A DNA stretch of 64,000 bases from a virus, in IMG/VR virus record IMGVR_UViG_3300026531_000001, positions 16,754-80,753 of that record; one strand, given 5' to 3'. Shown one piece after another: positions 31,432-60,700 of this stretch. Below the pieces are notes generated by a model, which worked only from the letters and a program-made list of their open reading frames with translations, did not search any database and was not told the origin of the DNA. A program made the translations under genes and the position numbers. Numbering within the stretch: the first letter of the stretch is position 1; each line of letters opens with the position of its first letter.

Positions 31432-33264
31432 ATGATGAAGCCCAAGGCCCGGCGCCTTTATTACCCGAACAAGGCGTACCTCGAGGCGGCGCGTACCGCC
31501 ACCCGGCAGGATGCGCCACCTGATGAGCGCCAGGAGGCAGCGGCGCGTGCCGCCAAAGAGCTTGTCCCCCTGGCGAAGGCCGTGCCCGTGAATGAAGTGA
31601 TGCGGTGGGCCCAGGCCCATGCGCCGAAGGAGCTACCCGGGGCGCAGCTCAATCGCATGGCAAAGGTAAGCCTCGACCTCGAGGACCCCAACTCGCGGTC
31701 TGTCTGGTTGGTGCGACCGGTGGGTCTCGATTGGCCGCAGTTGCGCGCCATCGTCAAAGAAGACCCGGTGCTCAAGAGTGTGATCTGGACGCGCATCAGC
31801 CAGGTGCAGCGGTTTCTGCGGCCGTCGCGGCAGGAGTGGAAGCCGGGGTACCGCATCCGCTTGCGGGATCGCCACCGCAAACCAACCCCTGAGGATGAAG
31901 CTCGTATCAGCTGGCTCGAGCAATACATCCTCAACGCCGGAGCCGAGTTCGACCCGCGCAAGCGCCGTGCGCTCCGGCGCGACAACCTGTGGGACTGGGC
32001 CTCGAAGCACCTGCAGGACTCACTCACCCTCGACGCGGCGCCGGTCGAGCTGGTTTCGACCCCCTCAGGACGCACGCACGGCTGGGTACACGTGGACGGG
32101 GGCATGGTCTACCTAGTGGACCCGAATATCGGGGCCGCCGACCGCGAGCCCCCGAGCCTGCACCAGCGTTACGGGCTCGACATCCCTGATCCCCAGGAGG
32201 TTGTGGCGATCCTAGCCCACGAAGGCCGGGTTCAGGCATGGTATACCCACGAGGACCTGCTCTACCGCGTGCGCCGCCCACATTCCGAGGCCCTAGCGCT
32301 GGGCTATGGCCAGCCGGAGCCCGAAGACCTGATCCGCATTGTCACCGGGTTCGTCAACGCGCTCACCCTAAACCTGCGCGGTTTTACGCACAACTCGATT
32401 CCCAAAGGCATCCTGGCGGTGTGGGGCGACTTCAACGGGGATGATGTAGAGCAGTTCCGCATGGAGTGGGACGCCTACGTCACCGGGGTCACTAACCGCT
32501 GGCGCCTACCCGTGCTGATCTCCGAGGACGGATCGCAGAATGCTGGGGCCAGCTTTATCCCCATTGGCCAAGATTTCAATGAGATGTACTTCGCCCGCTG
32601 GATGACGTTCCTCGTAGCCATCAAGGCGGCCCTCTACGGTATGGACCCTGAGGAGATCAACTTTGAGTCGTTCAGCGCCAAGCCGAGTACGCTTTCGGGC
32701 AGCGACACCGAGGAGCGGTTGGCAAGCTCGAAGGACAAGGGCTTGTGGCCGTTGCTGCAGTTCCTGGCCCAGACCCTCAACGAAATCCTGTACACGGTAG
32801 ACCCAGACTTCGAGCTCTACTGGACGGGCCTCGAGCAGGACCAGCAACTCGCCAAAGCGGACGAAGAGAAGATGCTCACCCTGGGCGAGTTCCGCCGGCG
32901 CCGCGGCGAACCCGAGCCGGATTCGGAGGTCCTCGCCAACGCGCCGATGAACCCCGCGCTGCTCTCGCTGTACCAGATGGAGCTGCAGGAACAGCAAGCC
33001 CAGGAGCAGCAGGCCGCAGGCGTCCCGGACGGGGGGGCGATGCCCCCCGGGGCCGAAGCGGCCCCGGGGCAGGAGGAAGAGGGGGCTCAGCCCGAAGAGG
33101 CCCAGGGCGCGCCGGGTCAGGAAGAGGACGCGCCCCCGGCCGATCCGCAAGAGGCGGAAGAGTGGGCCCTCGAGCACCATCTGCCGCAGACCCCGGGAGC
33201 GGGAGATGAGGACCTGGCCAAGGCCGTGACCGAGATCGAGGTGTGGCCGGAGGAGGCCGAGTAA
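31432..33264 (+). CDS. Portal protein
   Basis: DSLTLD, GYGQPEPE, FTHNSIPKGIL, WRLPVL and ALYGMDPEEINF motifs (SPO1/K-type portal). Confidence 0.85.
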   Translation: MMKPKARRLYYPNKAYLEAARTATRQDAPPDERQEAAARAAKELVPLAKAVPVNEVMRWAQAHAPKELPGAQLNRMAKVSLDLEDPNSRSVWLVRPVGLDWPQLRAIVKEDPVLKSVIWTRISQVQRFLRPSRQEWKPGYRIRLRDRHRKPTPEDEARISWLEQYILNAGAEFDPRKRRALRRDNLWDWASKHLQDSLTLDAAPVELVSTPSGRTHGWVHVDGGMVYLVDPNIGAADREPPSLHQRYGLDIPDPQEVVAILAHEGRVQAWYTHEDLLYRVRRPHSEALALGYGQPEPEDLIRIVTGFVNALTLNLRGFTHNSIPKGILAVWGDFNGDDVEQFRMEWDAYVTGVTNRWRLPVLISEDGSQNAGASFIPIGQDFNEMYFARWMTFLVAIKAALYGMDPEEINFESFSAKPSTLSGSDTEERLASSKDKGLWPLLQFLAQTLNEILYTVDPDFELYWTGLEQDQQLAKADEEKMLTLGEFRRRRGEPEPDSEVLANAPMNPALLSLYQMELQEQQAQEQQAAGVPDGGAMPPGAEAAPGQEEEGAQPEEAQGAPGQEEDAPPADPQEAEEWALEHHLPQTPGAGDEDLAKAVTEIEVWPEEAE

Positions 33265-33839
33265 TGCCGCGGTACGTTGTGTACCTCGCCAAGGCGCACG
33301 CGACCGGCTACCCCCTCGCCGGCCGCCGCCGCTGGCGCGGGCTCGAGATCAGCATAGAGGCCAAGGCCGGCCAGTACCGCCCATGGAAAGATGACCAGGG
33401 GCGTGAGGGCAAGACCCTCATGCGCTACGACTACGGGTACATCCGTGGCACCGAGGGGGTGGACAAGGCCCCGCACAAGAAGCGCCCGGACCACCTCGAC
33501 TGCTACGTCGGGCCCTATGAGGGCGCGCGCTGGGTCTACATCGTGCACCAGATCGTCCCCAAAACGGGCGAGCACGACGAGGACAAGGTGATGCTGGGCT
33601 TCCGCTCGGCACGCGACGCCAAGGCCGCCTACCTTGCCCACATCCCGCGCAGCTACTACGGCGGGATGAGCCGCATGCCGGCTGAGACCTTTGTGCGCCT
33701 GGTCAAGGAGGGGAGGCTGCGAGGGCGCGTGGTCCTGGGCGAGCCGGTGCCGGGGGCCCGGGCCAAGGAGCTGCGCACCCTGCTCGAAATCGCCCGTCGC
33801 GGGCGGCTGGCCCGGGTGCCAGATAGGGGAGAGGTATGA
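33264..33839 (+). CDS. Inorganic pyrophosphatase-like (polyvalent-protein iPPase) domain protein
   Basis: GLEISIE, MRYDYGYIRGTEGVD, DHLDCYVG and DEDKVMLGF motifs. Confidence 0.8.
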   Translation: MPRYVVYLAKAHATGYPLAGRRRWRGLEISIEAKAGQYRPWKDDQGREGKTLMRYDYGYIRGTEGVDKAPHKKRPDHLDCYVGPYEGARWVYIVHQIVPKTGEHDEDKVMLGFRSARDAKAAYLAHIPRSYYGGMSRMPAETFVRLVKEGRLRGRVVLGEPVPGARAKELRTLLEIARRGRLARVPDRGEV

Positions 33840-34840
33840 GCGTGCTGGCGGCTTCCGAACGCGACGTATGGAGCCCCGACCCCGACCCGTTCGTGGCCGC
33901 GCTCGAGCGCGGCATGACGGCGCTCGGGACGAGCTACCTGTACCACGTGCACCGCGACCTGCACCGCGTGCTCAAGCTGCCCCCTTTGCCGGCCAGCTAC
34001 ATCCGGGAGCTCTACCATGTGGACACCCTCGCCAAGGCGAGCCAGGCCGAGGCGCGGCGTAAGGCCCTCGAGCGCGCCCGGGAAACCTACGAGCGGGTGC
34101 TGGCCGGGCGATCCCCGGGCGAAGCAGTGCCCCCGGAGGTTTACCGCGACCTGGTGCAGGCGATCACGGATGAATGGTACGGCCGCGGGCGGCTCGAAAC
34201 GCGCGCCCAGCAGCGGGCCGTTGCCAGTTACATCACAGGGTTGCTGCAAGCGGGGTACATGACCCAGGCCAACCCCAAGGCCCTACTCGAGCGGTATGCC
34301 GGCGTCCTCGGCGAGCGGCACGCCATGCGCATCGAGTTCGCCCGCGCCCGAGCAGCCGAGCATATACGCCACCTGGATGAGAATACCCGCCACGCCATCG
34401 TGCAGGTGATCTACGCCTGGGAGGAGGACCGCCGCCAGCCCATGGACCTAGCCCGGGCACTCGCCGACCAGTTCGGTCGCCTCAACCGCGACTGGCGCCG
34501 GGTTGCGCTTACGGAAGTGGCTCGCAACCGCGCGGCCGGCTACCTAGCAGGGCTCCCCGATGGGGCCGTGGTGGAGTGGAGCGCTGCGAGGGACGCCTGC
34601 GACAAGTGCCGCAAGCTCCACGGCCGGCGCTTCACGGTGGTGCCGGGCCCGGGCGACCCCAAGCTGGACGTATGGCCGGGCAAGAACCCCATCGGCCGGC
34701 GCGACCCCGTAGAGCACGCCGCGATCCCGTTGCACCCCCACTGCCGTTGCCGCTGGATCCACGTCAGCCGCGCCGGGGAGGGTGTGAACCCCGAGTTTGA
34801 GCGAAAGCTGCAGGGGCTGATTGCGCTCGCTACTCGATAG
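33836..34840 (+). CDS. MuF/SPP1 gp7-like head morphogenesis protein
   Basis: RDWRRVALTE, ACDKC and PLHPHCRC motifs. Confidence 0.85.
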   Translation: MSVLAASERDVWSPDPDPFVAALERGMTALGTSYLYHVHRDLHRVLKLPPLPASYIRELYHVDTLAKASQAEARRKALERARETYERVLAGRSPGEAVPPEVYRDLVQAITDEWYGRGRLETRAQQRAVASYITGLLQAGYMTQANPKALLERYAGVLGERHAMRIEFARARAAEHIRHLDENTRHAIVQVIYAWEEDRRQPMDLARALADQFGRLNRDWRRVALTEVARNRAAGYLAGLPDGAVVEWSAARDACDKCRKLHGRRFTVVPGPGDPKLDVWPGKNPIGRRDPVEHAAIPLHPHCRCRWIHVSRAGEGVNPEFERKLQGLIALATR

Positions 34841-40594: not shown

Positions 40595-40609
40595 GCCCAC
40601 CTTCGTCTC

Positions 40610-41296: not shown

Positions 41297-44200
41297 ATGC
41301 CATGGACTGCAGACCGCTACCCCGACGCTATGCGCCACCTCTCGCCACCGGTGCGTAGGCGCGCCATTCGCATCGCCAACTCATTGCTGCGCAACGGCTA
41401 CGGCGAGGGGGAGGCCATACGGATCGCTATAGCCCAGGCCAAGCACCAGCTGGCCAAGGGATACTACTTGGCCTACGACCCCAATGGGTTCGCCCTGGTC
41501 TTTTGGCTCGAGCCTGAGGCACCGCTCGCCAAAGCTGAAGGGGGATCGGACCTAGGCCCGAACGAGCGCTGGGTTACGCTCAAGCCCCATGGACCCGACC
41601 ATCCCGACTATGTGCACGTCAAGATCAAGGTCAACCCCGACGGCAGCGCCCATGTGGTCTCCGGCCCAAAGGGGTTGCACGGCTTGCGACTGACGCGCAT
41701 CGGTGGGAAGAAGGACGGCCGACGCGAGAAGGCCGACGTGCCCCCCGAGGAGATGGCGCGCCGCAAAGAGCTGGCGCAGCGACTGCAAGAGCACATCCAG
41801 GAGGCCCACCGCGCGGCCTTGGCCGCCGCCGCCCGCATCACCGGGAACCCCCACCTCGAGCGCTTGCTCGACGACGACACCCGTGAGCAGCTGCGTACGA
41901 TCGCGCAGCAGGCGGTGGGGGAGGGCCCCGAGGCGAGCCTCGGGGCGGGCCTGGCCACCGCGCGCCACGTGCGCGCCGCTACCCAAGCGATCAAGCGCAT
42001 CGAACGCCAAGTGCTCAAGCACCTGGTACGCGACCCCGATCTACGGAGCGCGGTCCTTGGCGAGCACGACGCAATCCAGCCGGAGGAGGTTCCCGGGGCG
42101 GAACCGACCCCAACCCCCAGCCGCGGCTACGGGGGGTCCATGCGCCAGATGGCCGAAGAGCACGGGCTCACGGATGAGGAGTTCGAGCGCGAGGCCGAGG
42201 ACGCTTTCCAGGCCCGGCTCGCCCAGTACGCCCCCGAGGTGCAGGCGCGCATCCTGGCGGCGCGGGAGCGCATGCGGGCTGCGCAGCCCCTGGCGCGCGA
42301 AGCCGGCGCCGCCCTGGAGGAAGCGGCACCGAAGCCCGCCGCCCCCACCCCCGAAGAGCTGCGCCAGCATGCGGACGACGTGCGCACCTTCCTGGCCGCG
42401 TCCCGCAAGCTGCGCCAGCTGCAAAGGGCGAAGCGCCGCGCCCTGCTCGGGCATGACCCCGAGGCGACCGAAGCCGAGATCAAGGCCCTGGAGGAGGCCC
42501 AGCGCGCCGAGGACGGGAGCCCGCTGGTGGTCCACGCCGAAGAGGTAGACCCCGAGCTGGCCCGCGAGCTGCAGGCGAGGATCGCCGACCTGGCCAAGGA
42601 GGACCTGACCCGCAGCTTCCTCGACACCGTGCAGCGCGCCGCTGAGCCCGGTTGGAGCTACGGGGAGCTGCGGAAGGCCCTCTACAAGCACTACGCAGCC
42701 GGAGCCTACGCGCACCTGAGCAATGTGGGTCTGGCCGTACTGGGGCACGACACCCTGGACCGGCTGGCCCTGGACGCCCTGGGCCTCGACGCCGGGGCGA
42801 AGCTCATGGCCCACGCGCTGCGCCGCGGCCTCAGCGACGAAGAGGTGGCCAAGGTGCGCAAGGCCCTTGCGGAGCATCACGACCAGACCCTCGAGCCCAT
42901 GCTCAAGGAGGCCATGGAGTGGGGCACCAAGGCGCTGGAGGCCGCCAGAGCGATCGAAATCCCGGCGATTACGGCCACCACCGACGCCCTGATGGTCATG
43001 GACCTGGTGCGCAAAAAGCGGCGCCTGCTCGAAGAGGCGTACCGCCACCTGGGGACCGCGCTCGGGAAAATGGAGGCGTCCGCCGCTCTCAACTACGCCC
43101 TGGGGCAACCTCCAAGCGACCACCTCGAGCTCGAGTTCGGCAAGAGCGCGCGCGAGGTGATCCCGGCGCTGCGGGCCCTGGGTCTGCAGCCGGGCGACTA
43201 CACCTACGACTGGGAGGGCGACCGCTTCAAGGTGCGCGTCAACCGCGCCGGCATGGACCGGCTCACCCCCGAAGCCGATCCCGAGGAGCGCGCCCGCGCC
43301 GACCGCGTGAAGGCGATCAAAGCGGGCTTGCACGACGAAGCGGACTGGCTGCCCGCCGGCTTCGCCCGGTACCCAGCCACGGCCTTCGACCAGCAGGAAC
43401 CCCCGAAGGCCAAGCGCTTGGCTCGGGCCCCCGACTTCAGCCGCGACGTGCGCGCCGGCCTTGAGGAGGCCATCGCCAGCCGGTTGGCGGACGGGTGGAC
43501 CCCCACCGAGCTAAAGCGGCTGCTCACGTCCGCGAGCTTCATCCGCGACTGGGTGCCGCCGGAGAAGATGGAGGCGTACGACCAGCACCTTGAGGAGCTA
43601 CTTCCGACGTGGGCGGGGGAAGAGGTCCGGCGCAACAAGCAGGGTGAGGAGTACCGGGTGCCGATCCCGGTGGACTACGACCGCCTCGAGGAGAAGCACC
43701 CCGAGCTGCACGAGCGGTTGCAGGGCATGGCCCGGGCATTCGTGGAGAAGGAGCACCCTGGCGAAGCCGACTTCTACAGCCAGACCGTTGCCGACACCCC
43801 CGAGGTGCGAAAGGCCCTCTACCTCACCGTCCTCGAGGACCCGCGCACTCAGGTGGCCCTCAAGCCGCTGGGCGACCTGACCCACCGCGATCAGCGGGCG
43901 ATCCGCCACTACTACCTGACCGAGGTCTTGGGCAAGAGCCCCGAGGAGCTGGCGGCGCGCAAGGAGTCGGTGCGCAAGGCCCTGGCCGCGTACGACGCCA
44001 AGCACCCCATGCCCGACAAGTGGGGCGCGCCGTCTGATGGCGGCCTCTTCGGCGACCCGCAGCCCGTGGACCCCGAGGCCCCGGTGACGCTGCGCTTTCG
44101 CCAGCACGTCGCCGCCGACCCCGACCTCAAGGCGGAGACGCTGCGCGCCATGGGCCTGGGCCACGGCGACTACGTGGAGAACGACGACGGCAGCGTCACC

Positions 44201-46797: not shown

Positions 46798-49700
46798 CGC
46801 TACGCGAGATCTACGATCTGATCAAGGCCCAGGCCCAGGCCCTGTTCAACCTGCCCGAACCGCCGGCGAAGCGCACGCGCCCGCGGCGCTCCACTCGGCG
46901 CACCCGCAAGCCGAAGGGGGCACCCCCGGACCAGCCCGCCCTGTTCGGCGACGGGGGCAGCAAGCCGGTCGAGCAACCGGCGCTCCCGTTCGGGAAGCGC
47001 GACAAGACGCGCCTGAAACCGGTCAAGAAGGTCGTGCGCGAGAAGGGCGGGAAAACCCACACGCAGACCTACTGGGAGAAGGTGGGCGACGCGGAACCGG
47101 CGCCCAAGCCGGCCGCGCCGAAGCCCGAAGAGAGACAGGAGCCCAACCCCGGGGACGCGTTCCGAGCGAAGCTGAGCCAGGACCCGCACGCCGCCCTCGA
47201 CGAGCTCGAGCGCGAGGTGGAGGGCCTGTTCACCACCCGCAGTGCGGCCGACACGCACCGCAAGAAGCTCCGCCCCAAGGACCTGCCCAAAGGCGACGCG
47301 CCCGGGCCGCGCCTGCAGCGGATGCTCGCCAAGCTGCAGGCCCTGCTGAAGGACCTGCATGAGGCGTCCAACTTCGCCTACGACATGGGCCGCCCCAACA
47401 AGCAGGTGGAGGACCTGATCCAGCGCGCGAACCAGGCCGCCCACAGCGTGGGCGCGGCCGCTGAAGGCGTGCGGGCCGGCGTCTTCGACGCCCCGAAGCC
47501 TGAGGCGGCGCCGGCCGAGGAGCCGAAGCCGAGTGCGGGGGAAACCCGGCCGGCCGTGGCCCCGGCGGAGCGGCAGCGCTCGCGCGATGCTAAGGCCCTG
47601 GCCGACTTTCTCGAGCGGGCCAACCTGCGCGAGTACGTGCTGAGCGAGGGCGATGAGGACGGCAGCTTTCACCTGCGCATTCCCAACCCGCCCTTTCTGC
47701 CGCTGGTCATTGAGCGTCACCCCGGGCCCGACCATGAGCCGCGGCTCTACCTAACCCACTACCGCCACGCCGACCCCGACGATCCCATGAGCGACCTCTA
47801 CGTGGACGGGGAGGTCGTTTACAAGGTCAACCCCGACGGCACCCTCGAGCTCGAGGAGACGGCCGTGCACGACCCATTCCGCGGGTATGAGTCGCGCAGC
47901 CGCGACGCCGACTTCGCCCGCATGTTCAACGCCAACCTAGTGGAGCACGGCTACCACGAAGTGCCCCGGGAGCGCTGGAAAGGCAAGAACGTCCCCGAGC
48001 TCCCCGTCGAGGCCCCGGAGCGGAGCGAGGAGGCCCCGGACACCCTCCCCATCGAGCCATCCGAGCAAAACCTGCAGGAAGGTGCCGAAAAAACCAGGAT
48101 GTTTGCCGACGGCGCCCACGCCTACCGGCTCAAGGGCGGCCGCTGGCACCGCATGGATGAGGAGCCGGAGGCGGCCCCCAACGCTGCGGTGCCCGTAGAG
48201 CCTGCGGAAGCGCCCGCAGAGAAGGCGCCGACTGAAGAGCCCGCACCGCAGGAGGACGCACCACTCACCCCCGCTGAGGAGCCCAAACCCGCACCCGAAC
48301 CCGAGGCTCAGGAAGATGCCCAGCCGACGCCGGCGCGCAGCCGCGGCCTCGACTACTCCAAACCCTTCCGCCAGCTGCTCGAGCACCTGCCCCGCTTCGG
48401 CTTCGCCCTCCTGCCGAAGGCGACGGTGGCCCAGCGCACCAAGGCCAACCAGCGCGCCGTCGAGCTACTGGAGCGCCTGGAACGCGAGCAGCGGGAGCCC
48501 ACCCCTGAGGAGCGCGAGGTCCTGGCCGCCTACACCGGCGAGGGCGGGCTTTCGGGCGACCTGAACGCCCACTACACCCCCACGCCGCTGGCGGCGGCGA
48601 TGTGGGCCTTACTGCAGCGCGTCGGGGGCAAGCCTAAAACGGTGCTCGAGCCTTCCATGGGCAACGGCGTCTTCCTGCACACCGCCCCTCAGGGCACCCA
48701 GGTGACGGGCGTCGAGCTTTCCAAGGTGTCCGGCGCCATCGGCAAGCTCCTGCACGAACCCAACGGCCACCGGGTCTACCCGGGCATGGCCTTTGAGGAT
48801 TACAACCTCGGGGAGGGGCAGGAGCACACCTACGACGCCGTGATCGCCAACCCGCCCTACGGCATCCGCGGCAGCCTGATCACCCGGGGGAAACCGTGGC
48901 TGGCGAAGGCCGAGCAGTATTTCATAGACGCTTCGCTCGACCGCATGAAGGACGGGGGCGTCGGGGTTTATCTGATCAACCCCGGGCCGGTGGAGAACCG
49001 TAACACCCGCGACTTCCGCACCCGCCTACTGGCCCGGGCTGAGGTGCTGGGGGCGTACCAGCTCCCCTCGAGCGTCTTCAAGGAGTCCAACTCGGGTGTG
49101 CCCCCCGTCGTCCTGGTGGTGCGCAAGCGCCCCGACACCGACGGCATGACCCTGCTCCGCCTCGTCCAGCGCCACGGCGAGGAAGCGCTGCATCACGCGA
49201 ACGTCCTGACGGGCGCGGCCAAGGACTTCCTCGACGGCAAGCTGCACTTACGTGAGGAAAACCTGCTCGGCGAGTGGAGCGGCGAGACCACCTACCATGG
49301 CTACAAGAAGATTGAGGGCGACCTGGATCCCGAACGGCTCGAGCGCCTAATCAATGGAGAAATATTTGCTCAACCCGTTGACATGGATGCTCTCGAGCAA
49401 ACTTATGGCGATGAGCTCGAGTCCGCCCGGGCATGGGCCCAGAGCGAAGCCTCCGATCCTGAACGCGGCCGCGTTCAGGAAGGTACGGTTAGCGAGGATG
49501 GCCGCCTGGTCTTCCGCAACCACCGCTGGCATACGATCCAGGGTGAGGACCCCCGCCTTGCGGCCGCCGTGGACATTGCCAAGGAGCTGCAGGATTACGT
49601 GCACGTCCTCAACAATGGGTCCCCGGCCGACGCTGAGGCGCGGCGCAAGGCAGTGCTCGAGTCGCTGCAGAGCTATCTCGAAGAGTATGGGAACCCCCAT

Positions 49701-52700
49701 GAACACCTAAAGGGCGACATCAAGCGCATTCACAACTTGGCGCACCTGATGAGCGCAGTCACGCCAAAGGGCGAGATTGCCGAGCACCTGCAGCGCCCCG
49801 TGACCGCTGGAGGTGACGCGGGCGATGTGGACTATGCCGACCCCCACGCCGTGGCCGCGCACCTCGCGCGCCAGCGGCGCCTTACCCCGGCGCGCTTCGT
49901 GTCCGTGCTCGTCGGGAGCGAGCACTGGAACACGCCGAAGGCCATCGAGTGGCTGGCCAACAACGGCTACGCCCTGGATGAGTCGGGCCGCTGGATACCA
50001 GAGGACGAATTCTATGTGGGCGACGTGTACGAACGCGCCGAAGCGCTCGAGGCTGCGGCCCAATCGCCCTCACTCTCGCCCCAGGAGCGCGAAATCCTGC
50101 GCGCCCAAGCGCAGACGTTCCGCGAAAAGCTACCGCGCAAGTCCATTGAGGATGTGGAGATCACCGCGCGCGACATCTACGTCCGCCCCGAAATCGTGGC
50201 CGAGTTCATTCGCGATGTGATTGATCCCGGCGGAGAGTATGAGGTAACGCGCACGGCGACCGGCGTCTTTGAGGTGCGGGACCACTACGGGCGCGACCTG
50301 CCGGCCCACGTCCGCGAGTTCGCCAAGTACCTCAACTACGACACCCCGGTGCGGCGCCTCACCCCCGAACAGACCCGCAGCATGACCCAGGCGGAGCTCG
50401 CGGCGCTCAAGGCCCAATACCGCGAGGACGCCCGGCGCCAGGAGAAGGAGTACGCCGACCAGTTCAAGGCGTGGGCGGCGAGCTCGGACTACCGGGAGGA
50501 GCTGGAGGAGCACTATAACCGCGCCTTCAACAGCTACATCCCGCCCAAGTACAGCGACCGCCCCCTGAACATCCCCGACTGGAAGGGGCCGCCCCTGCAC
50601 AGTTTCCAGACTGAGGCCGTGCGCCATGCCCTCGACACCGGCAGCTCGATCATGGCGCTCGACGTGGGCCTCGGGAAGACCTACGCGGGCATGGCCCTGG
50701 CCCAGATGCTTGAGCATGAGGGGCGCGCCCGCCGCATCATGCACATCATGCCCAAGAGTCTCATGGGCAACTGGCGCAACAGCTACGCTGAGCTTGGCAG
50801 CGGCCGCTGGTTCGTGACTGGAGGCTTCGCCCTTCCTGAGGGGGCGGATGAGCAGACGGCTACTGACGCGCAGCAGGTCTACGACCTGCTCAAGCGGCGT
50901 GAGCTGGGGACCTGGAGCGAGCTCGAGGCCGAGAGCAAGCTGCCCGCCGACCGCTTCCAGGCGGCGCTGCGGGCCCTATCCAAGGCGGACGTAGCGCGTG
51001 GCATCCCCGGCGAGCACGTGATGGTCATCGGCGAGACCTTCGACCCCAAGAAGAAGGTCTGGCGCGAGGACAAGATGCAGGATGTGGCCACCAAGCTCAC
51101 CCGCTTGGCCGCCGATCCCTCGATTACCCGCGTGCTCATCACCCGCGACAAGTTTTCGGCAATCCCGGTACGCGGCGAAACGCTGAAACGCTATGTCGAA
51201 GACGATGTGGTGCGCGCCCGTGAGTTCGAGGAGGCCGAACGCGACGCCCGTAAGAAGAAGAGCGCGCGCGACTGGGTGGCCAAAATGGAGAAGGCCATGG
51301 AGAAGGCCACCTCCAAGCTGTTCGGCGACCAGGTGAAGGCGGTGCACTGGGAGGACCTAGGCGTAGATGCCCTGATCTCCGACGAGCACCACGCCTACAA
51401 GAACTTGCATGCTGCCCCCGCCAGCTTCGGCGAGACGCCCAAGTTCCTGGGTGCTGGGTCGGAGTCTCAGCGCGCGGCCGACATGCTGATCAAGAGCCGC
51501 CATGTGCGTGATCGCAATGGTGGTAGCGGCATATACGCACTAACGGCCACCCCCACCAAGAACAGTCCCCTCGAGGTCTACAACATGTTGCGCTATGTCA
51601 CTGACGCCGTGGACCGCCTCGCCCCCACCCCCAAGGCGTTCATTGACCGCTACGCCGAACTAGGCAATGCCCTGGTGGCCACCCCCGGCGGGGTGGAGAT
51701 GCGCACAGCCGTGCTCGGGTTCAAGAACCTGGGCGAGCTACGGGGGCTGATGAACCGCTACATCTTCCGGCGCACCGCGCAGGAGGTGGGGCTGAAAATC
51801 CCCGAGCGCGAAGACCATGAGCATATCTTCGAGATGCACCCTGAGCAGCACGCAACCTACCGCGACTTGGCCGCTGCCGCTGAAAGGGCTGCCGGAGACC
51901 GCGAGGCGGAGGGCGATGCCCACTTCTTTTCCTACCTCGCCCGCATGCGCTTCCTCACCCTCGACCCGGCCCTCTATGACCCGGAGTCGCTGGGGCACTT
52001 GCCCAACCCGCGCTTCCAGAAGGCGGCTGAGATCACCAAGAGCGCCCTCAAGGAGGGGGGTAAGGTGGTCATGTTCATGGACCTGGGCCAGCAGGCAGCC
52101 GGCGAGAACCCGGCCGAGGACATGAGCAAGGAGGCCCTGCAGCAGTACGCCCAGCAGCACGGCTTGCCCCATGAGGGCATGACCGAAGCGAAGCTGCGCA
52201 GCTTAGTAGGCAAGCACATAGACGCAAGCAGGACCAACGCCTACGAGCGCCTGAAGCAGCACCTCATCGAGGCGGGCGTCCCCGAAGACCAGATCGCTAT
52301 CGTGACCTCAAAGACGGCGAAGAGCTCGGCGGCGCGTGCGGACATCGAGGCGGCGTTCAAGGCCGGCAAGCTGCGCGTCGTGGTGGGCTCCACCGGGGTG
52401 ATCGGCGAGGGTTTCAACCTGCAGACCGGCACCACCGACATGATCCACCTGGACATTCCCTGGGACCCCGGCACCTACTGGCAGCGCCTCGGGCGCGCGG
52501 TGCGCCAGGGGAACACCCAGGAGAAGGTGCGCAACCATGTGCTACTTGCGCGCGGATCGGTGGACGCCATGACCTACGGCACCATGCTGGGTAAGAAGGG
52601 GTGGACGGACATCCTGTGGAACAGCACCGAGGAGCGGGCCCGCAACGCCGACGCCCTCGACCCGGAGAACGACCCCTACACCATGATGCTCATGCAGACG

Positions 52701-53729
52701 GCCGACGACCCCGACGCAGTGAAGAAAATCCTCGAGGAGCAGAAACAGCGCCGCCTCGAGCAGGCCCGGGTCGCGGCACGCCAGGCCAGCCTCGGGAAGC
52801 TCGAGCAGGCGGCCATTCTGCACAACTCGCTCCGCAAGCAGCGGGGGCTGGTGGAGCAAGCCAAGGCGCACCTCGAAAAAGCGCATGAGGACGCCGCGCC
52901 CGACAAGATCGCCCTATGGGAGAAACGCCTCAAGGACCGCAGCGATAAGCTACAGCGGCTCGAGGGCGAGTGGCGCAGTCGCGTTGAGGCCCTGAAGGGT
53001 GACGAGCACATCGAGCCCGGGCACATCGCGGCGCTCGAGTCGGGTCGCCCCTTCATCGTCACGCCGACGGGTGCGGTCTTCGTCGAGGGCGGCGTGGTGC
53101 GGCAGACCCGCGGCGACAAGAGTGCACCCTACCGGATCGTCGGCGTGGATCCCGTGACCAAGACCGTGAGGCTCCGGCCGCTGGTCCCCCTGCAGAAGTA
53201 CGGCGACATCGCAGAGGCGAAGAGCTACAAGGCAGAGGACCTGACCAAGAAGAGCGGCCTCACGGTGACGCCCGAGGTGGACCAGGAGGAGCTGGCCGCT
53301 GAGCTCGAGCGCCGGCTGGCGCACGCCGGCCCAGCAGGCCTGCGCCAGGTGCATCCCGATGTGGTGCGCCGCCACCACGATGCGGTACAGCGCGGCCTGG
53401 ACCGGTGGACGCGGGAGAGCTATCACTACGGCGGCTGGGTGGTGAACCGGGAGGGCAAGCCCGAGTTTCGGAAGCCGCCGCACGACCGCAAGGAGGGGTT
53501 GCTCCAGGAGGGCGAGCGGATGCTCACAAACACCCCGGAGGATGTGCGCCTGTGGCAACAGCACCATGGGGACGATGAACACAACTACGACCGGCTTGCA
53601 ACCCTCCCCTTCGCTCACAAACCCCAGTACGGGCGCCGCCACTACCGGGCCGAGCCCATCGAGCCTGAGGAGTACCTGGTAAAAGCCCCGCTCGTGGAGA
53701 TCTACCGTAAACTGATAGGGAGGATGTGA
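46794..53729 (+). CDS. DarB-like N6-adenine methyltransferase-SNF2 helicase fusion, 2311 aa
   Basis: HYTP, VLEPSMGNG, IANPPY; DVGLGKT, DEHH, TATP, EGFNLQ and QRLGRAVRQGN motifs. Confidence 0.88.
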   Translation: MTLREIYDLIKAQAQALFNLPEPPAKRTRPRRSTRRTRKPKGAPPDQPALFGDGGSKPVEQPALPFGKRDKTRLKPVKKVVREKGGKTHTQTYWEKVGDAEPAPKPAAPKPEERQEPNPGDAFRAKLSQDPHAALDELEREVEGLFTTRSAADTHRKKLRPKDLPKGDAPGPRLQRMLAKLQALLKDLHEASNFAYDMGRPNKQVEDLIQRANQAAHSVGAAAEGVRAGVFDAPKPEAAPAEEPKPSAGETRPAVAPAERQRSRDAKALADFLERANLREYVLSEGDEDGSFHLRIPNPPFLPLVIERHPGPDHEPRLYLTHYRHADPDDPMSDLYVDGEVVYKVNPDGTLELEETAVHDPFRGYESRSRDADFARMFNANLVEHGYHEVPRERWKGKNVPELPVEAPERSEEAPDTLPIEPSEQNLQEGAEKTRMFADGAHAYRLKGGRWHRMDEEPEAAPNAAVPVEPAEAPAEKAPTEEPAPQEDAPLTPAEEPKPAPEPEAQEDAQPTPARSRGLDYSKPFRQLLEHLPRFGFALLPKATVAQRTKANQRAVELLERLEREQREPTPEEREVLAAYTGEGGLSGDLNAHYTPTPLAAAMWALLQRVGGKPKTVLEPSMGNGVFLHTAPQGTQVTGVELSKVSGAIGKLLHEPNGHRVYPGMAFEDYNLGEGQEHTYDAVIANPPYGIRGSLITRGKPWLAKAEQYFIDASLDRMKDGGVGVYLINPGPVENRNTRDFRTRLLARAEVLGAYQLPSSVFKESNSGVPPVVLVVRKRPDTDGMTLLRLVQRHGEEALHHANVLTGAAKDFLDGKLHLREENLLGEWSGETTYHGYKKIEGDLDPERLERLINGEIFAQPVDMDALEQTYGDELESARAWAQSEASDPERGRVQEGTVSEDGRLVFRNHRWHTIQGEDPRLAAAVDIAKELQDYVHVLNNGSPADAEARRKAVLESLQSYLEEYGNPHEHLKGDIKRIHNLAHLMSAVTPKGEIAEHLQRPVTAGGDAGDVDYADPHAVAAHLARQRRLTPARFVSVLVGSEHWNTPKAIEWLANNGYALDESGRWIPEDEFYVGDVYERAEALEAAAQSPSLSPQEREILRAQAQTFREKLPRKSIEDVEITARDIYVRPEIVAEFIRDVIDPGGEYEVTRTATGVFEVRDHYGRDLPAHVREFAKYLNYDTPVRRLTPEQTRSMTQAELAALKAQYREDARRQEKEYADQFKAWAASSDYREELEEHYNRAFNSYIPPKYSDRPLNIPDWKGPPLHSFQTEAVRHALDTGSSIMALDVGLGKTYAGMALAQMLEHEGRARRIMHIMPKSLMGNWRNSYAELGSGRWFVTGGFALPEGADEQTATDAQQVYDLLKRRELGTWSELEAESKLPADRFQAALRALSKADVARGIPGEHVMVIGETFDPKKKVWREDKMQDVATKLTRLAADPSITRVLITRDKFSAIPVRGETLKRYVEDDVVRAREFEEAERDARKKKSARDWVAKMEKAMEKATSKLFGDQVKAVHWEDLGVDALISDEHHAYKNLHAAPASFGETPKFLGAGSESQRAADMLIKSRHVRDRNGGSGIYALTATPTKNSPLEVYNMLRYVTDAVDRLAPTPKAFIDRYAELGNALVATPGGVEMRTAVLGFKNLGELRGLMNRYIFRRTAQEVGLKIPEREDHEHIFEMHPEQHATYRDLAAAAERAAGDREAEGDAHFFSYLARMRFLTLDPALYDPESLGHLPNPRFQKAAEITKSALKEGGKVVMFMDLGQQAAGENPAEDMSKEALQQYAQQHGLPHEGMTEAKLRSLVGKHIDASRTNAYERLKQHLIEAGVPEDQIAIVTSKTAKSSAARADIEAAFKAGKLRVVVGSTGVIGEGFNLQTGTTDMIHLDIPWDPGTYWQRLGRAVRQGNTQEKVRNHVLLARGSVDAMTYGTMLGKKGWTDILWNSTEERARNADALDPENDPYTMMLMQTADDPDAVKKILEEQKQRRLEQARVAARQASLGKLEQAAILHNSLRKQRGLVEQAKAHLEKAHEDAAPDKIALWEKRLKDRSDKLQRLEGEWRSRVEALKGDEHIEPGHIAALESGRPFIVTPTGAVFVEGGVVRQTRGDKSAPYRIVGVDPVTKTVRLRPLVPLQKYGDIAEAKSYKAEDLTKKSGLTVTPEVDQEELAAELERRLAHAGPAGLRQVHPDVVRRHHDAVQRGLDRWTRESYHYGGWVVNREGKPEFRKPPHDRKEGLLQEGERMLTNTPEDVRLWQQHHGDDEHNYDRLATLPFAHKPQYGRRHYRAEPIEPEEYLVKAPLVEIYRKLIGRM

Positions 53730-54091
53730 TGAAACGCAAGGTGGACCGCAAAGCGCTCGCGGGGGTGGTGCAACTCTTGCAGCAGGATCCCGCCAGCTAC
53801 AAGAGCTATGGCATGTACTGGTGGCCGCTGAAGCGTTGGCTGCGCCGGGAGGTGGACGAGAAGACGCTGCCCCTGGTACATCTCCCCCACCCTCACGATG
53901 AGCCCGAAACCGTGGCCCGGCTCGAGGCTCTCTATCCCGATGAGTGGTCGCTGTTCATGGCTGCACTACACCACGCCGAGCAGAAAACCTTGTGGGGCGA
54001 GCGCTATCAGGGACACAGCTACTGGCCGGCGGGTGAAGGTTACGTCCTGGACGACCCCGACATGGGTCCGGCCAACACTGTGGGCGCATAA
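53729..54091 (+). CDS. Hypothetical protein
   Basis: Coupled to the upstream stop; GGAGG RBS. Confidence 0.6.
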   Translation: MKRKVDRKALAGVVQLLQQDPASYKSYGMYWWPLKRWLRREVDEKTLPLVHLPHPHDEPETVARLEALYPDEWSLFMAALHHAEQKTLWGERYQGHSYWPAGEGYVLDDPDMGPANTVGA

Positions 54092-54117: not shown

Positions 54118-54123
54118 GCGGGT

Positions 54124-54924
54124 ATGGAACGCACTCTAGCGCCTTCGTTCTCCCTTATCGAGCTCGCTCTCTACCTACTTGCCAAAGCGCAGGGCGCCCA
54201 TGCCATGCGCGTTCTTCCCAGCGGCCGCCTGATGGTGCGGGTCAAGACGCCTCAGGGTCGGAAGTGGGTTCCCCATACCGCCCCTGAGGTCGAGCAGCAC
54301 ATTGACCAGCACCTGCATCCAATCGCGGAAGATGCGCATGCCCGGGCCGAAGCCCACCTTAAAGAGCTTATGCGGGGGCTGAACGTCGAGGTGGGCGGCC
54401 GGATCAAGGAGCCCTACAAAATCGCCGAAAAGATGGGGCGGCCAGGCAAGCAGCCGCGCCATTTCAACCGCCTGGGCGACACCGTGGGCCTGCGCGTCAC
54501 GGTGCACGATCCCGCGCACTTCGAGGAGGCCCACCGGCGCCTCAAGCAGTTAATGACTAACCCCCACCCCCACCTGAAGATCCTGGATCATGAGGTGCAT
54601 GACGGTTCGCGCGACGGCTACCGCTCGGTGCATTTCAACGGCATTGGCCATAAGGGGCAGCGGCTCGAGGTGCAGCTTCGGCACCACTGGCAGAACGTTT
54701 GGGCCGATCACGCTCACGACAACTTTTACAAGGACGACAACCTGCGCAAGCTGGTGCCGGACCATGAGCGTGAGGCCGTAAAGCGGGAAGGCGTACAGTA
54801 CATGAAGCAAGTCAGCGACCACCTGCACGCCAACGGTGGCAAGATCGGCGAGGGTTTCCCCGAGGCACCGCCGCGGATCAAGAAATACGGCCTCGAGTTC
54901 CCGTCCCACAAGCTGCAAAACTAA
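54124..54924 (+). CDS. RelA/SpoT-family small alarmone synthetase
   Basis: GRIKEPYKIAEK, DTVGLRV, GYRSVH and EVQLR...WAD..H motifs. Confidence 0.85.
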   Translation: MERTLAPSFSLIELALYLLAKAQGAHAMRVLPSGRLMVRVKTPQGRKWVPHTAPEVEQHIDQHLHPIAEDAHARAEAHLKELMRGLNVEVGGRIKEPYKIAEKMGRPGKQPRHFNRLGDTVGLRVTVHDPAHFEEAHRRLKQLMTNPHPHLKILDHEVHDGSRDGYRSVHFNGIGHKGQRLEVQLRHHWQNVWADHAHDNFYKDDNLRKLVPDHEREAVKREGVQYMKQVSDHLHANGGKIGEGFPEAPPRIKKYGLEFPSHKLQN

Positions 54925-57530: not shown

Positions 57531-57552
57531 CTACCGCTCACCCCTCTAGGGT
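57531..57552 (+). promoter_or_regulatory. Late promoter motif (protease)
   Basis: CTACCG-N10-TAGGGT-N6-GTG. Confidence 0.75.
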
Positions 57553-57558
57553 GGCAAC

Positions 57559-58479
57559 GTGGAGCGCACCGGGATCATCGTACAACTACCCCACATGGCC
57601 AAAGCCACAGATGTGGACGGGCGCCGCATCGTCTACTTCGAGGCGTCGCGTGACGGGGTGGTGGATCGTGAAGGCGACATCGTAGCCGCAGATGCGCTAT
57701 GGGCGTCGCGCAAGGTCTTCCTAGAGCAGGGGAACCTGGACCTCAATCACTGGTCGTGGCTCGGAAACCCAATCGGGACCGGCGCTCGGCCGGAATACGT
57801 CATCGGCCTACCCCTCGAGGTCAAGCGGCAGGGCCGCTCGATTTACGTCAAAGGGGAGATTTTCTCGAACCGGACGCCCCCGCCACCGGGCAGCGCCGGC
57901 GACTGGGCCAACTGGTTTTGGCACTCGATCACCCAGATGGACCCGCCGCAGCGCTGGTACCCGTCGGTTTTTGGCAGCATTAAGGCAGTAGAGCACGACA
58001 CTGTGCGTGGCAAGCGAGTCCGGCGCATTACGGCGGTTGAATGGTTCTCGGTCGGGTTCGCACAGCGCGCCCAACACCCTGAGCTCCCCCCGGTTTCGAC
58101 TGAACCCATGGGGCCGCTGGCAAAAGCGGTGCAGGTACGCCCCGATGAAGGCGCGCGTGCCGGGGTAGAGGTTATGGACCTGAGCACATTCGCCAAGGCC
58201 CTCACCGTGGGCGTGCCCGTAACGGACAGTGCCGCGAAGGAAGGCGTGCAGGCCATGACCCCCGAAAGCCTGGACCGCCGAGTGAAAAAGATCGTTCCGT
58301 ACGAAAAGCTGCGTGGGCGGGTACTGCGCGCGATCTTGCGGGGCAGGGTAGCCCCAAAGCGCGCCGTCATTGCCCAAGCCTTTCAGAAACTGGGTTGCGA
58401 TCCGGGAACAGCGCGTGAATATACCGAACGCCTGCTCCTGGAAGCGGCCGCCATGCATCCAGACGGCAAACGCCGCTAG
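57559..58479 (+). CDS. Prohead maturation protease
   Basis: IVYFEAS..VDREGDIV, GNLDLNH and YPSVFG motifs; upstream of scaffold and capsid. Confidence 0.75.
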   Translation: MERTGIIVQLPHMAKATDVDGRRIVYFEASRDGVVDREGDIVAADALWASRKVFLEQGNLDLNHWSWLGNPIGTGARPEYVIGLPLEVKRQGRSIYVKGEIFSNRTPPPPGSAGDWANWFWHSITQMDPPQRWYPSVFGSIKAVEHDTVRGKRVRRITAVEWFSVGFAQRAQHPELPPVSTEPMGPLAKAVQVRPDEGARAGVEVMDLSTFAKALTVGVPVTDSAAKEGVQAMTPESLDRRVKKIVPYEKLRGRVLRAILRGRVAPKRAVIAQAFQKLGCDPGTAREYTERLLLEAAAMHPDGKRR

Positions 58480-58510: not shown

Positions 58511-59218
58511 ATGGCCGACCATGAAAAGCTGCTCCAAGAAGGCGAAGCCGCCCTGGAGCGGGCCGCTGAGCTCCTGGCGAAAGCTGCAGACCCGGAGCTC
58601 GACCCGGCCACGGCTGACGAAGACCCCGACAAGGACTTCGACGGCCTGGACAATCCCGAACCCGTAGAGGGTGACGGTAACGCCGGAGAGCAGCCCGATG
58701 AGGACGGCGACGACGACTGCCCCGAGGGTGAGGACTGCGAGAAGGATGAAGAGGGCGACGAGCCCGCAGGGGAGACCACCGAAGAGAGCGTGCCCGAAGA
58801 GGGCGAAGACGAGCCCATGGCAAAAGCGGCCGATGGGTTCGTGGACGCCACGCCGCTGCTCGAGGCGATTGACGCCAAGCTGGGGCAGCTCGCGGAGCTG
58901 ACCAAGCGCGTGCAGGCGCTCGAAGCCCACAACAACGCCCTGGTCAAGGCCCTTGTGGCCCAGAACGAAGGGCTGGGGGCCCTGGTGAAAGCGCACGGCG
59001 TGCTGGCCGACGACACCCCGCGGCGTCCCAAGTCGCGCCAGGTCTCGGTGCCGACCTCTGCGCCCAAGCTCGACCGCGAGACCGTGATGGCCAAGGCCGC
59101 GGAGATCGTGGACGATCCTGTGCGCATGGGCATGATCGAGCACTACTACAACATCGGCAACATCGAAGGCATGCTGCAACATCTAACCGCCGAAGAGCGC
59201 GCCAAGCTCGCCGGCTAA
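58511..59218 (+). CDS. Acidic scaffold protein
   Basis: D/E-rich segment plus coiled coil, between protease and capsid. Confidence 0.7.
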   Translation: MADHEKLLQEGEAALERAAELLAKAADPELDPATADEDPDKDFDGLDNPEPVEGDGNAGEQPDEDGDDDCPEGEDCEKDEEGDEPAGETTEESVPEEGEDEPMAKAADGFVDATPLLEAIDAKLGQLAELTKRVQALEAHNNALVKALVAQNEGLGALVKAHGVLADDTPRRPKSRQVSVPTSAPKLDRETVMAKAAEIVDDPVRMGMIEHYYNIGNIEGMLQHLTAEERAKLAG

Positions 59219-59236
59219 GCAAGAGGAGGAACCTGA

Positions 59237-60700
59237 ATGTACGGATTGGGAGAAGGTGGAGTCGTAAGCGGCGCAGGCATCCCCGCAGGGGGTATCCAGA
59301 CCTTTGAGGACTGGAATGCTTTCGCCAAGGCGATCCAGACCTCGACCTATGAGACCGACCACAGCCAGCTCACTGGCGTTGGCGGCCTGCGCGTCGAGAG
59401 CCTGGAAGCAACCCTCAAGAAGATCATCGAAAAGGAAGAGTCGTTCAAGCTCTTCCGCGCGCTGAAGCGCCAGCCGGTCACTAGCTCGGTGCATGAGTAC
59501 ACCGCACAGACCAGCATCGGCGGGCAGCCTGGCGGCGCGTTCAACTCCGAAACCGGGCCGATCAGCTCCGAGGTTGGCGAGTACGACCGCCGGATCACCT
59601 TCGTGAAGTACCTCATGACCCAGGCGCAGATCAGCCATGTGGCTTCGGTGCAGAAGACCATCGTGCCGCTGAAAGCGCGCGAAAACGCCAATGCCCTGCT
59701 GCGCCTCAGCCGCGCTGCCAACTGGTCCATGTACCAGGGCAATGCCGCTGTCGCACCAATGCAGTTCGACGGCATCGAGGCGATCCTGAGTGACTTCCGT
59801 GGCGGTAGCAACATCCGCGACCTGGAGGGCTCGAGCGACGTGGGTGCCATTGTGGACACCATCTTCGAGTCGTTCGCCACCGCCATGGGCGAAGGCAACT
59901 TCGGGAAGATCACCCATGTCCACATGGACCCGATCACCCAGGCCGCTCTCGACCGCTACCTCGACCCCGCCTTCCGCGTGAACCTGGACAACAACCCCGC
60001 CGGTCTGCAGCTGGGTGCTCCCGTCAAGGCGATCCGCACCAGCTTCGGTGACGTGGCCACCGAACAGGACATCTGGATCGAGGGCCCCGAGAACGCGAAG
60101 CCGGCCTACGCCAAGTATGGCAAGGTGCCCGACGACGCCCCCGGCACTCCGACCGTCAGCGCAGCCGCCAACGCAAGCGCCGGGTCTAAGTTTGACTCGG
60201 ACAAAGCGGGCACCTACTACTACGTAGTGGCCGCGATTGACGAGCGCGGCGTCGAGGGCATTCCCAGCACTGCGGTTTCGGCGGCCGTCGCTGCCGACGG
60301 CAGCGTTACCCTGACCATCACCCCCAACTCCGACCGCAAGCAGACCGGGTACGCCATCTATCGCTCGACCCAGGATCCCGCCACGGCCCCGGCCCTCGCG
60401 GACTACCGCCTGGTCAAGCGCATCCCCGCCAACCCCGATCGCACCGCGACCACCGTCTTCGAGGACAAGAACGAGGACATCCCCGGTAGCTCCAAGCTCT
60501 TCCTGCTCAACCGCGTGCCGGAGGCTATCGAGTGGATCCAGCTGCTCCCCGCTACGCAGTTCCCCCTCTACCCCACCAATGCGGCAATCATCCCCTGGGC
60601 GGTCCTGCTTTACGGCGCGCTGCAGCTCTCGATTCCCAACCACCACTTCGTCATCAAGAACTTCCTCCCGCCCCTGGCGAAGTGGAAGCCCTTTAAGTAA
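59237..60700 (+). CDS. Major capsid protein (A511/K/SPO1-like)
   Basis: K|AIQTSTY..GGLRVESLE, VHEYT, RRITFVKYL, QFDGI and VLLYGALQL motifs. Confidence 0.85.
   Translation: MYGLGEGGVVSGAGIPAGGIQTFEDWNAFAKAIQTSTYETDHSQLTGVGGLRVESLEATLKKIIEKEESFKLFRALKRQPVTSSVHEYTAQTSIGGQPGGAFNSETGPISSEVGEYDRRITFVKYLMTQAQISHVASVQKTIVPLKARENANALLRLSRAANWSMYQGNAAVAPMQFDGIEAILSDFRGGSNIRDLEGSSDVGAIVDTIFESFATAMGEGNFGKITHVHMDPITQAALDRYLDPAFRVNLDNNPAGLQLGAPVKAIRTSFGDVATEQDIWIEGPENAKPAYAKYGKVPDDAPGTPTVSAAANASAGSKFDSDKAGTYYYVVAAIDERGVEGIPSTAVSAAVAADGSVTLTITPNSDRKQTGYAIYRSTQDPATAPALADYRLVKRIPANPDRTATTVFEDKNEDIPGSSKLFLLNRVPEAIEWIQLLPATQFPLYPTNAAIIPWAVLLYGALQLSIPNHHFVIKNFLPPLAKWKPFK

Follow-up and report, generated by a model that had tools for sequence, protein, structure and literature searches.

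Why one tetrapeptide motif should recur near the ends of head proteins and of large enzymes encoded beside them is the question raised by the head-gene region of a phage genome of 80,753 bp (IMG/VR record IMGVR_UViG_3300026531_000001, ~65% G+C). The window, i.e. the whole stretch of DNA that was analyzed, comprises 64,000 nucleotides (bases 16754–80753 of the genome); coordinates refer to the window, and genes to its plus strand, unless stated otherwise. The motif, [LMF]-[AVI]-K-[AG], had been interpreted in a first-pass annotation as a shared tag for protease cleavage and capsid loading. What stood of this proposal is the behavior of the motif as a conserved cleavage site on head proteins and four enzymes, with leaders that vary in relatives; its use as a generic predictor did not. 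We estimate at about 0.75 the probability that the motif corresponds to real protease sites marking head-internal proteins. The head genes display ~69% DNA identity to those of the Thermus thermophilus myoviruses Lalka8, Lalka27a, and Lalka27b, with phiMa and Cumys as more distant relatives. An IMG/VR record of 79 kb (G001, 98% complete) is a closer relative than the Lalka phages. Judging from these relatives, the phage appears to be of the Thermus type.

Enrichment and placement of the motif were established computationally. Genes of the complete 80,753-bp genome were called with a codon-usage scorer (80 genes, 22,690 residues). The block of interest extends from the portal to the capsid gene (31432–60700) and encodes 25 proteins, the remainder of the genome encoding 55. 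Controls included 2000 within-protein shuffles, a reversed motif, tail open reading frames (ORFs), and ORFs of the opposite strand. The strict motif was detected 24 times in the genome. Twenty of these matches were located in the block, versus a mean of 2.25 in the shuffles (maximum 10; Poisson 5e-13), and four in the 13,829 residues encoded outside of it, where ~2.5 were expected. The motif was present in the first 80 residues of nine of the 25 block proteins (0.43 expected) and of one of the 55 other proteins (0.81 expected; Fisher p = 7e-5 for block versus rest). LAKA was the third most over-represented tetrapeptide of the proteome (11 occurrences for 1.0 expected). A repeated DNA 12-mer was considered as the source of the motif and rejected: codons differ from site to site, indicating that the signal operates at the protein level and is not a DNA word. 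The contrast was repeated in G001 (23 matches for 4.6 expected), and sites were kept at equivalent places in Lalka8. Thus, the enrichment near the termini of head-module proteins anticipated by the first-pass annotation was borne out, and every site that it had listed was recovered, together with the matches that it regarded as background (SMAKGG in a methyltransferase, LIKA in an ATPase, and an internal LAKA in a DarB-like protein).

The position of the putative cut was deduced from the major capsid protein (59237..60700, 487 residues; PHROG 752, 3e-78), which carries FAK/A at residues 29–32 (nt 59321–59332). At this position, [FL]-x-K-[AS] is invariant in the 94 homologues that include the N-terminus, down to 25% identity. 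The protein is homologous to the capsid proteins of Staphylococcus phage phi812 and Bacillus phage SPO1 (E ~1e-22), and in an alignment with the full-length phi812 chain (5lii), V23-K24-S25 stands opposite A30-K31-A32. The same phi812 protein was deposited later as a chain of 439 residues (9row), which shows an offset of exactly 24 residues and starts at S25. The latter chain therefore begins right after the lysine. The statement of the first-pass annotation that capsid proteins of the K/A511 type are cleaved after a lysine fits the two phi812 chains, but a paper confirming it was not found in our literature search, nor one describing a Lys-specific prohead protease motif for the present family or for phi812 and A511.

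The other structural proteins of the head module showed the same pattern. The acidic scaffolding protein (58511..59218, 235 residues), encoded between the protease and capsid genes in all relatives, contains five strict matches, at residues 22, 103, 144, 158, and 193 (nt 58574, 58817, 58940, 58982, and 59087). Multiple sites are retained in Lalka8 and G001, and in 50 of 50 non-redundant loci the ORF occupying the scaffold position had the motif among its first 80 residues, with several copies overall. The portal protein (31432..33264, 610 residues; PHROG portal families, E ~1e-18) has two predicted cut sites supported by conservation, LAKA at residues 47–50 (nt 31570–31581) and at residues 595–598 (nt 33214–33225), ~12–13 residues from the C-terminus. 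Both the N-terminal site (at ~50–60 residues) and the C-terminal site (~12 residues from the end) were found in 15 of 16 non-redundant homologues. In the portal of Lalka8, the aligned N-terminal site is lost and a new LAKA occurs nine residues downstream, a shift that the alignment presents as site turnover under selection rather than as passive conservation. A third portal match, LAKA at residues 473–476 (nt 32848–32859), is missing in Lalka8 and is probably not a cut site. The MuF-like minor head protein (33836..34840, 334 residues; PHROG 115, 1.8e-8, with a weak match to Pfam Phage_Mu_F) carries LAKA at residues 65–68 (nt 34028–34039). Its homologues have the N-terminal site in 15 of 24 cases by the [LMF] rule, the others having I, V, or Y at P3; the corresponding sequence is VAKG in Lalka8.

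The enzyme proposed to recognize these sites is encoded between the enzyme genes described below and the scaffold gene (57559..58479, 306 residues). Its assignment as a prohead maturation protease is based on fold, catalytic candidates, and gene order. The sequence had no match in Pfam or PHROG (E <= 0.01 or 0.001), including the curated S78, U35, and U9 families, and no sequence match in the PDB, although homologues form ~100 clusters in metagenomes. An AF2 model built on 36 homologues had a pLDDT (predicted local distance difference test) of 82. The top Foldseek match of this model in the PDB was T4 gp21 (5jbl; probability 1.0, TM [template modeling] score of 0.53 on the target), followed by many herpesvirus assemblins. 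His64 and Ser136, which are invariant in the 36 homologues, are the catalytic candidates. The protein belongs to a distinct sequence family with the gp21/HK97/assemblin fold. The gene order protease-scaffold-capsid is common to this genome, Lalka8, PHB04, and the IMG/VR loci. The protease family also occurs in myoviruses of ~86–95 kb infecting Bordetella (PHB04), Pseudomonas (Dolphis, Jeremy, Touem01), Aeromonas, Yersinia, Morganella, Enterobacter, and E. coli.

The protease itself contains three predicted self-cleavage sites that are conserved in homologues: MAKA at residues 13–16 (nt 57595–57606), LAKA at residues 187–190 (nt 58117–58128), and FAKA at residues 211–214 (nt 58189–58200). Across the 36 homologues, some with as little as 31% identity, residues K15, A16, K189, K213, and A214 are invariant, or nearly so; neither length nor sequence is constant in the N-terminal leader and in the linker formed by residues 190–212. 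In the model, the three sites map to low-pLDDT loops or linkers and look like self-processing sites located on either side of the catalytic domain. A complex predicted between the catalytic domain (residues 16–189) and the N-terminus of the RelA-SpoT homologue described below (residues 1–45) had a score of 0.01, below the mark, which counts neither way.

Gene neighborhoods of the protease homologues were retrieved from 80 related IMG/VR loci. Among same-strand ORFs located upstream of the protease gene, 47% contained the motif in the first 80 residues, versus 9% for the reversed motif, counts that are inflated by shared ancestry and are to be read as contrasts rather than as probabilities. Tail ORFs (7% versus 5%) and ORFs of the opposite strand (7% versus 6%) were at baseline.

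Four proteins encoded by the block are enzymes rather than structural components, namely an inorganic pyrophosphatase (InPase), a helicase, a DarB-like protein, and a RelA-SpoT homologue. Together, they contain seven motif matches for 1.17 expected (p = 2e-4), and each has the motif within its first 80 residues. Pfam and PHROG assignments of portal, InPase, MuF, helicase, DarB-like, Ulx-like, RelA/SpoT, and major capsid proteins agreed with the labels of the first-pass annotation. The InPase, RelA_SpoT, and MuF domains are all encoded between the portal and protease genes.

The InPase, of the polyvalent-protein type (33264..33839, 191 residues; Pfam InPase PF18823, 1.2e-31), has a LAK/A site at residues 8–11 (nt 33285–33296) ending a 10-residue leader that starts with MPRYVVY. 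Homologues from four relatives (L046, L081, L078, and L035) and from PHB04 (hyp28) display an N-terminal [LF]-x-K-[AS]. The RelA/SpoT-type small alarmone synthetase homologue, also predicted to be cargo (54124..54924, 266 residues; Pfam RelA_SpoT, 1e-15), has a LAK/A site at residues 19–22 (nt 54178–54189) ending a 21-residue leader. In six of six homologues, down to 39% identity, φ-x-K-[AS] precedes the catalytic domain immediately, following leaders of 5 to ~125 residues. Both enzymes are encoded by stand-alone genes here, the InPase being fused to larger proteins in relatives (2103 residues in L078 and 2044 in L035).

The SNF2/DEAD-type helicase, a predicted cargo of 1742 residues (41297..46525; Pfam Helicase_C, DEAD, ResIII, and SNF2), contains LAKG at residues 52–55 (nt 41450–41461) and LAKA at residues 77–80 (nt 41525–41536), just before a conserved domain beginning with RW[IV]T..P. 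Thirty-five of the 36 non-redundant members of its cluster have [LFM]-x-K-[AS] after an unconserved leader of 5 to ~40 residues, 8–12 residues before the conserved RWITVHP start, and the gene lies at most 10 kb upstream of the protease gene in most IMG/VR loci. The first 80 residues (window 41297–41536) comprise an additional conserved module of ~50 residues before the tag in this phage, G001, and Lalka8. It is bracketed by LAKG or FGKG (at about residue 52) and LAKA (at about residue 77), is missing in proteobacterial homologues, and might be set free as a small peptide of its own. The module received no Pfam name; a ChaB-like domain was considered for the first 50 residues, no such Pfam match was obtained, and no claim is made.

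The DarB-like protein, the largest predicted cargo (46794..53729, 2311 residues; Pfam N6_Mtase, Eco57I, SNF2-rel_dom, and Helicase_C), carries sites conserved in relatives at both ends, LIKA at residues 9–12 (nt 46818–46829) and LVKA at residues 2295–2298 (nt 53676–53687), 14 residues from the C-terminus. Both are kept in G001 and Lalka8, and the N-terminal site also in PHB04 and a further relative (L034). The internal LAKA at residue 703 (nt 48900–48911) lies inside the methyltransferase domain and is probably uncut. When IMG/VR was scanned with only the N-terminal part of the DarB-like protein or of the helicase, the 79-kb relative was the sole match. PHB04 has tags within the first 10 residues of its helicase, DarB-like methylase, and InPase-like protein, and a site also in its protease, scaffold, and capsid protein.

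A peptide of the form Q-x-x-L-F (QAQALF; residues 12–22, window 46827–46860) is exposed right after the predicted N-terminal cut of the DarB-like protein. Counterparts were found in Lalka8 DarB (QPALF, residues 14–22, with QPTLW occurring twice further on) and in the PHB04 DarB-like protein (QLALF, residues 8–14), and this conservation across phyla suggests a function. The pentapeptide QL[SD]LF is a β-clamp-binding sequence, to which the DarB-like peptide is similar.

Between the MuF and helicase genes are small genes of unknown function, a gene for a DUF5131 protein, and a methylase gene, none of which encodes a terminal tag; the methyltransferase has MAKG inside the protein rather than at an end. 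The gene immediately downstream of darB encodes a Ulx-like protein (53729..54091, 120 residues; PHROG 1629, Ulx-like anti-restriction, 1.7e-8), an order shared with P1, Lalka8, and PHB04.

Several observations weigh against the interpretation of the motif as a protease site marking head-internal proteins. The Ulx-like protein lacks the motif, though its P1 homologue is packaged. Some strict matches are surely not cut, namely DarB-like residue 703, the LIKA of the ATPase, and LAKA 32 of a baseplate-type protein. The anchor for cleavage after Lys in the phi812 chain is the start of a deposited PDB chain and hence indirect, our literature search found no virion N-termini, N-terminal sequencing, or virion proteome for the phage or its family, and the 80-locus counts carry the ancestry effect mentioned above. 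Finally, the pattern was set after the data had been viewed, and LAKA is a typical helical tetrapeptide: the helical 4-mers ALEA and RKAL are equally over-represented. The last two points would favor a more restricted explanation, according to which the capsid protein, scaffold, protease, and portal are the only substrates and the matches in the enzymes result from chance or from a helix-forming composition. We consider this explanation very unlikely, and it is strongly disfavored by the excess of matches in the four enzymes and their location within the first 80 residues, by the retention of the enzyme sites in place in phages of other phyla while their flanks diverge, and by the baseline values of the reversed motif and of the tail genes.

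According to a second explanation, a host protease cuts the motif, or the motif acts as another host-directed signal, for secretion or degradation. Nothing specific speaks for it; a hint at a link with proteolysis tagging comes from a phage-encoded transfer-messenger RNA (tmRNA), whose tag ends in MLKAA. The motif is common to phages of Deinococcota and of several Proteobacteria, its sites are confined to head-module genes, and its only constant partner is the phage protease family, which itself contains three invariant copies. Such a host-directed role is accordingly most improbable. The tmRNA was detected with ARAGORN at genome positions 4663–4958 (L085:364–659), ~11.8 kb before the start of the window and between tail genes. 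Its tag peptide, GNPMLKAA, contains M-L-K-A, the site form found across the family, in place of the usual ending in ALAA. Neither Lalka8 nor the close IMG/VR loci yielded a tmRNA. The resemblance may be coincidental, or the phage protease and tagging by trans-translation may be connected.

Based on the preferred interpretation, i.e. cleavage by the phage enzyme, we infer cleavage, packaging, and ejection in the following scheme. The sequence φ-x-K/[A/S/G], sharpened in this lineage to [LMF]-[AVI]-K-[AG], would be the recognition site of the prohead protease of the phage, with cleavage after the lysine. The protease, a putative serine enzyme with the T4 gp21/HK97/herpesvirus-assemblin fold, would act inside the assembled prohead, where it would remove a 31-residue propeptide from the capsid protein, chop the scaffold at five sites, trim itself on both sides of its catalytic domain, and clip the portal at its two ends and MuF in its N-terminal part. 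Since prohead proteases work within proheads, the site-bearing enzymes are expected to reside in the prohead core. The helicase, DarB-like protein, InPase, and RelA-SpoT homologue would thus be co-assembled into the core and processed there, would stay in the DNA-filled head, and would be ejected into the host with the DNA.

A cut site implies only presence in the prohead while the protease is active, and is not proof that the tag is the loading signal. It is possible, and in our view somewhat improbable, that the removed peptides constitute a portable capsid-loading signal working from either end of a protein. Such a signal would take the form of N-terminal leaders of 10–21 residues (InPase, DarB-like protein, and RelA-SpoT homologue, that of the helicase being longer) and C-terminal tails of 13–14 residues (portal and DarB-like protein). 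It is a real possibility, though not one that we would bet on, that the sites are genuine and serve only in processing or activation, loading being ensured by folded domains, by contacts with MuF or the portal, or by a stepwise pathway of the P1 Dar type. The hydrophobic residues preceding the cut would then reflect a preference of the P3–P6 subsites of the protease. Hydrophobic P3 and P6 residues recur even in the capsid protein and in the protease (98% and 93% hydrophobic at P6, respectively), which fits recognition rather than targeting, and the 'hydrophobic leaders' of the first-pass annotation may therefore represent substrate recognition. The leaders range from 5 to ~125 residues with no common sequence, Ulx is untagged, and loading of P1 DarB needs other Dar proteins besides its N-terminus (PMC9024508). 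The removed peptides were also considered for an aromatic residue lying at most 10 residues from the cut (~8 of 12 sites by eye, ~35% expected); this feature was weak, missing in proteobacterial relatives, and not used.

Two points argue for a loading function of the peptides over a role restricted to processing. In T4 and P1, N-terminal peptides of 10–30 residues suffice for loading. In addition, the DarB-like protein has a C-terminal tail that, despite its location on the P' side of the cut, resembles the N-terminal leader of the same protein, and the two co-vary between phages (LREIY and LVEIY here, DLVRLY and DLVRLW in Lalka8), for which protease subsites alone are hardly a sufficient explanation. 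Ranked among ~22,000 proteome windows, 8-mers of the tail reached the 23rd position in this phage (23rd to 808th over seven windows) and the 2nd in Lalka8 (2nd to 4274th over eleven windows). This comparison was made post hoc and is suggestive of a role beyond cleavage.

The first-pass annotation had gone further in proposing that the tag predicts the injected proteome from sequence alone, which proved to be overstated. The relaxed form of the motif found across the family, φ-x-K-[AGS], was run as [LMFIV]-x-K-[AGS] and rejected as a genome-wide predictor, retrieving 17 proteins versus 17 for the reversed-motif control. The strict form also yielded false positives: LAKA 32 of the baseplate protein, LIKA 126 in the Walker-A region of the ATPase (261 residues), residue 703 of the DarB-like protein, and, probably, residue 473 of the portal. 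The tag is not a stand-alone predictor, owing to the lack of specificity of the relaxed motif and to the untagged Ulx, and is usable only in combination with position and gene context. The baseplate-type protein (126 residues, genome positions 15001–15381, i.e. 1372–1752 nt before the start of the window) has the only N-terminal strict match outside the head block. Its LAKA, at residue 32, is conserved in Lalka8 (residue 28) and G001 (residue 32), and probably belongs to a structural helix rather than to a cut site.

The upstream regions of the genes provided additional context. A box, CC[AG]C..-N8-TA[CG]GGT, precedes the start codon by exactly 6–7 nt in 12 genes, among them those of the portal, helicase, RelA-SpoT homologue, and protease, a recombinase on the minus strand, and several tail genes (window 31413–31431, 41278–41296, 54106–54123, 57541–57558, and 61187–61204, plus tail genes upstream of the window). 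TACGGT occurs 7 nt before the ATG of the helicase gene and TAGGGT 6 nt before that of the RelA-SpoT gene. The box looks like a promoter for leaderless late mRNAs. It backs the start codons that set the lengths of the leaders, and it fits the production of cargo together with virion parts. The recombinase, of the tyrosine type, is encoded between the cargo genes and the protease gene (55244–56203, minus strand; PHROG integrase, 1e-40); its gene, which G001 and Lalka8 also retain, is preceded by TAGGGT at 6 nt from the ATG.

In Lalka8, the tagged helicase gene is located within the tail/baseplate module (record positions 36133–41280; L002:134–5281) and the DarB-like gene is far from the protease gene, indicating that tagged cargo genes need not adjoin head genes. 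Otherwise unrelated tagged ORFs of seven loci (L021, L030, L031, L035, L047, L062, and L078) and of PHB04 (L093:1924–2000) share H-[VI]-x-x-Y-T-[RK]-K-D-G-x-x-V-x-x-H straight after the tag. This sequence may be a second portable module of the proteobacterial relatives; it was not found in the present phage.

Injected proteins are usually learned only by virion proteomics. The Lys-specific site, considered with its position and gene context, points to head-internal proteins, and cultivable members of the family are available (Lalka8 on Thermus thermophilus, PHB04 on Bordetella, and Dolphis on Pseudomonas). If the scheme is correct, two giant helicases would be delivered pre-made, which bears on anti-restriction and early host takeover, as would a pyrophosphatase and a (p)ppGpp-type synthetase. 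If, in addition, the removed peptides are the loading signal, the tag would list the injected enzymes of myoviruses of ~70–95 kb infecting Thermus, Bordetella, Pseudomonas, Yersinia, Aeromonas, and other hosts, among them the synthetase and the pyrophosphatase, which would act just as the DNA enters. Likewise, any protein provided with such a peptide and LAKA would then be packed in the capsid, released by the protease, and injected, and the peptide is accordingly a candidate for a short tag with which foreign proteins could be loaded into heat-stable capsids.

Comparison with known systems helps to delimit what is new. The capsid protein has homologues in Herelleviridae (phi812/K, SPO1, and A511), with an aligned φ-x-K/S at about residue 24, whereas no sequence search placed the present protease in a named family. 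The domain repertoire is that of the polyvalent proteins, for which DarB, MuF, InPase, and RelA/SpoT domains have been predicted to be delivered from the head (Iyer, Burroughs, Anand, de Souza, Aravind 2017; PMC5512222). That work invoked processing by embedded metallopeptidases rather than a prohead protease motif (PMC5512222), and the domains are encoded here by separate genes, each with its own predicted cleavable tag. The Lalka paper had already proposed packaging of DarB and Ulx and reported heads of ~80 nm for a genome of 72 kb (PMC11437467), a size that would leave room for protein.

The likeness to the Dar system of P1 lies in the succession of a DarB-like methyltransferase-helicase of more than 2000 residues and a Ulx-like gene, adjoining head genes in the present phage. 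P1 DarB has a capsid-targeting signal in its first 30 residues that loads a reporter, the P1 capsid protein is cut after Glu (E120/S121), and Dar protein N-termini are devoid of a consensus (PMC9024508), in contrast to the clear consensus observed here. No obvious equivalent of the tag was seen at the N-terminus of P1 DarB, and the P1 protease is not a detectable homologue of the present one. Homologues of DarA, Hdf, DdrA, and DdrB did not emerge, no search aimed at them having been made.

In phiKZ, 201phi2-1, and SPN3US, an A/S/G-x-E motif marks many head-internal or ejected proteins, as read from sequence and mass spectrometry (PMC5694885, PMC7411985, PMC10052503). The present phage is alike in having one motif on many head proteins, but residue specificity, lineage, and cargo differ. 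In T4, the capsid protein, the scaffold core, the protease, and the injected internal proteins (IPI–III and Alt) carry the site, and leaders of ~10 residues are removed (PMC9024508, 10.64898/2026.03.04.709575, PMC9026906). The gp21 motif is I/L-x-E (10.64898/2026.03.04.709575), and the two sites likewise combine a hydrophobic P3, any P2, a charged P1, and a small P1'. As in T4, one motif is common to the capsid protein, scaffold, protease, and predicted internal cargo, and the protease fold is the same. The P1 residue is Lys here and Glu in T4, the sequence of the protease shows no detectable similarity to that of gp21, the portal and the DarB-like protein have C-terminal sites as well, and the cargo would consist of very large enzymes (190 and 255 kDa) and small nucleotide-signaling enzymes.

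The marking of head and ejected proteins by one prohead-protease motif is thus already known from T4 and phages of the phiKZ/SPN3US type. What is new is the Lys specificity, the protease family unrecognized by curated libraries, the C-terminal sites, the spread over a large and nearly unstudied family with hosts among Deinococcota and Proteobacteria, and the predicted cargo, in which two giant helicases, an alarmone synthetase, and a pyrophosphatase are each encoded by a tagged gene of their own. By analogy, the system is best read as the equivalent, with Lys specificity, of the T4 propeptide and capsid-targeting system that relies on L/I-x-E.

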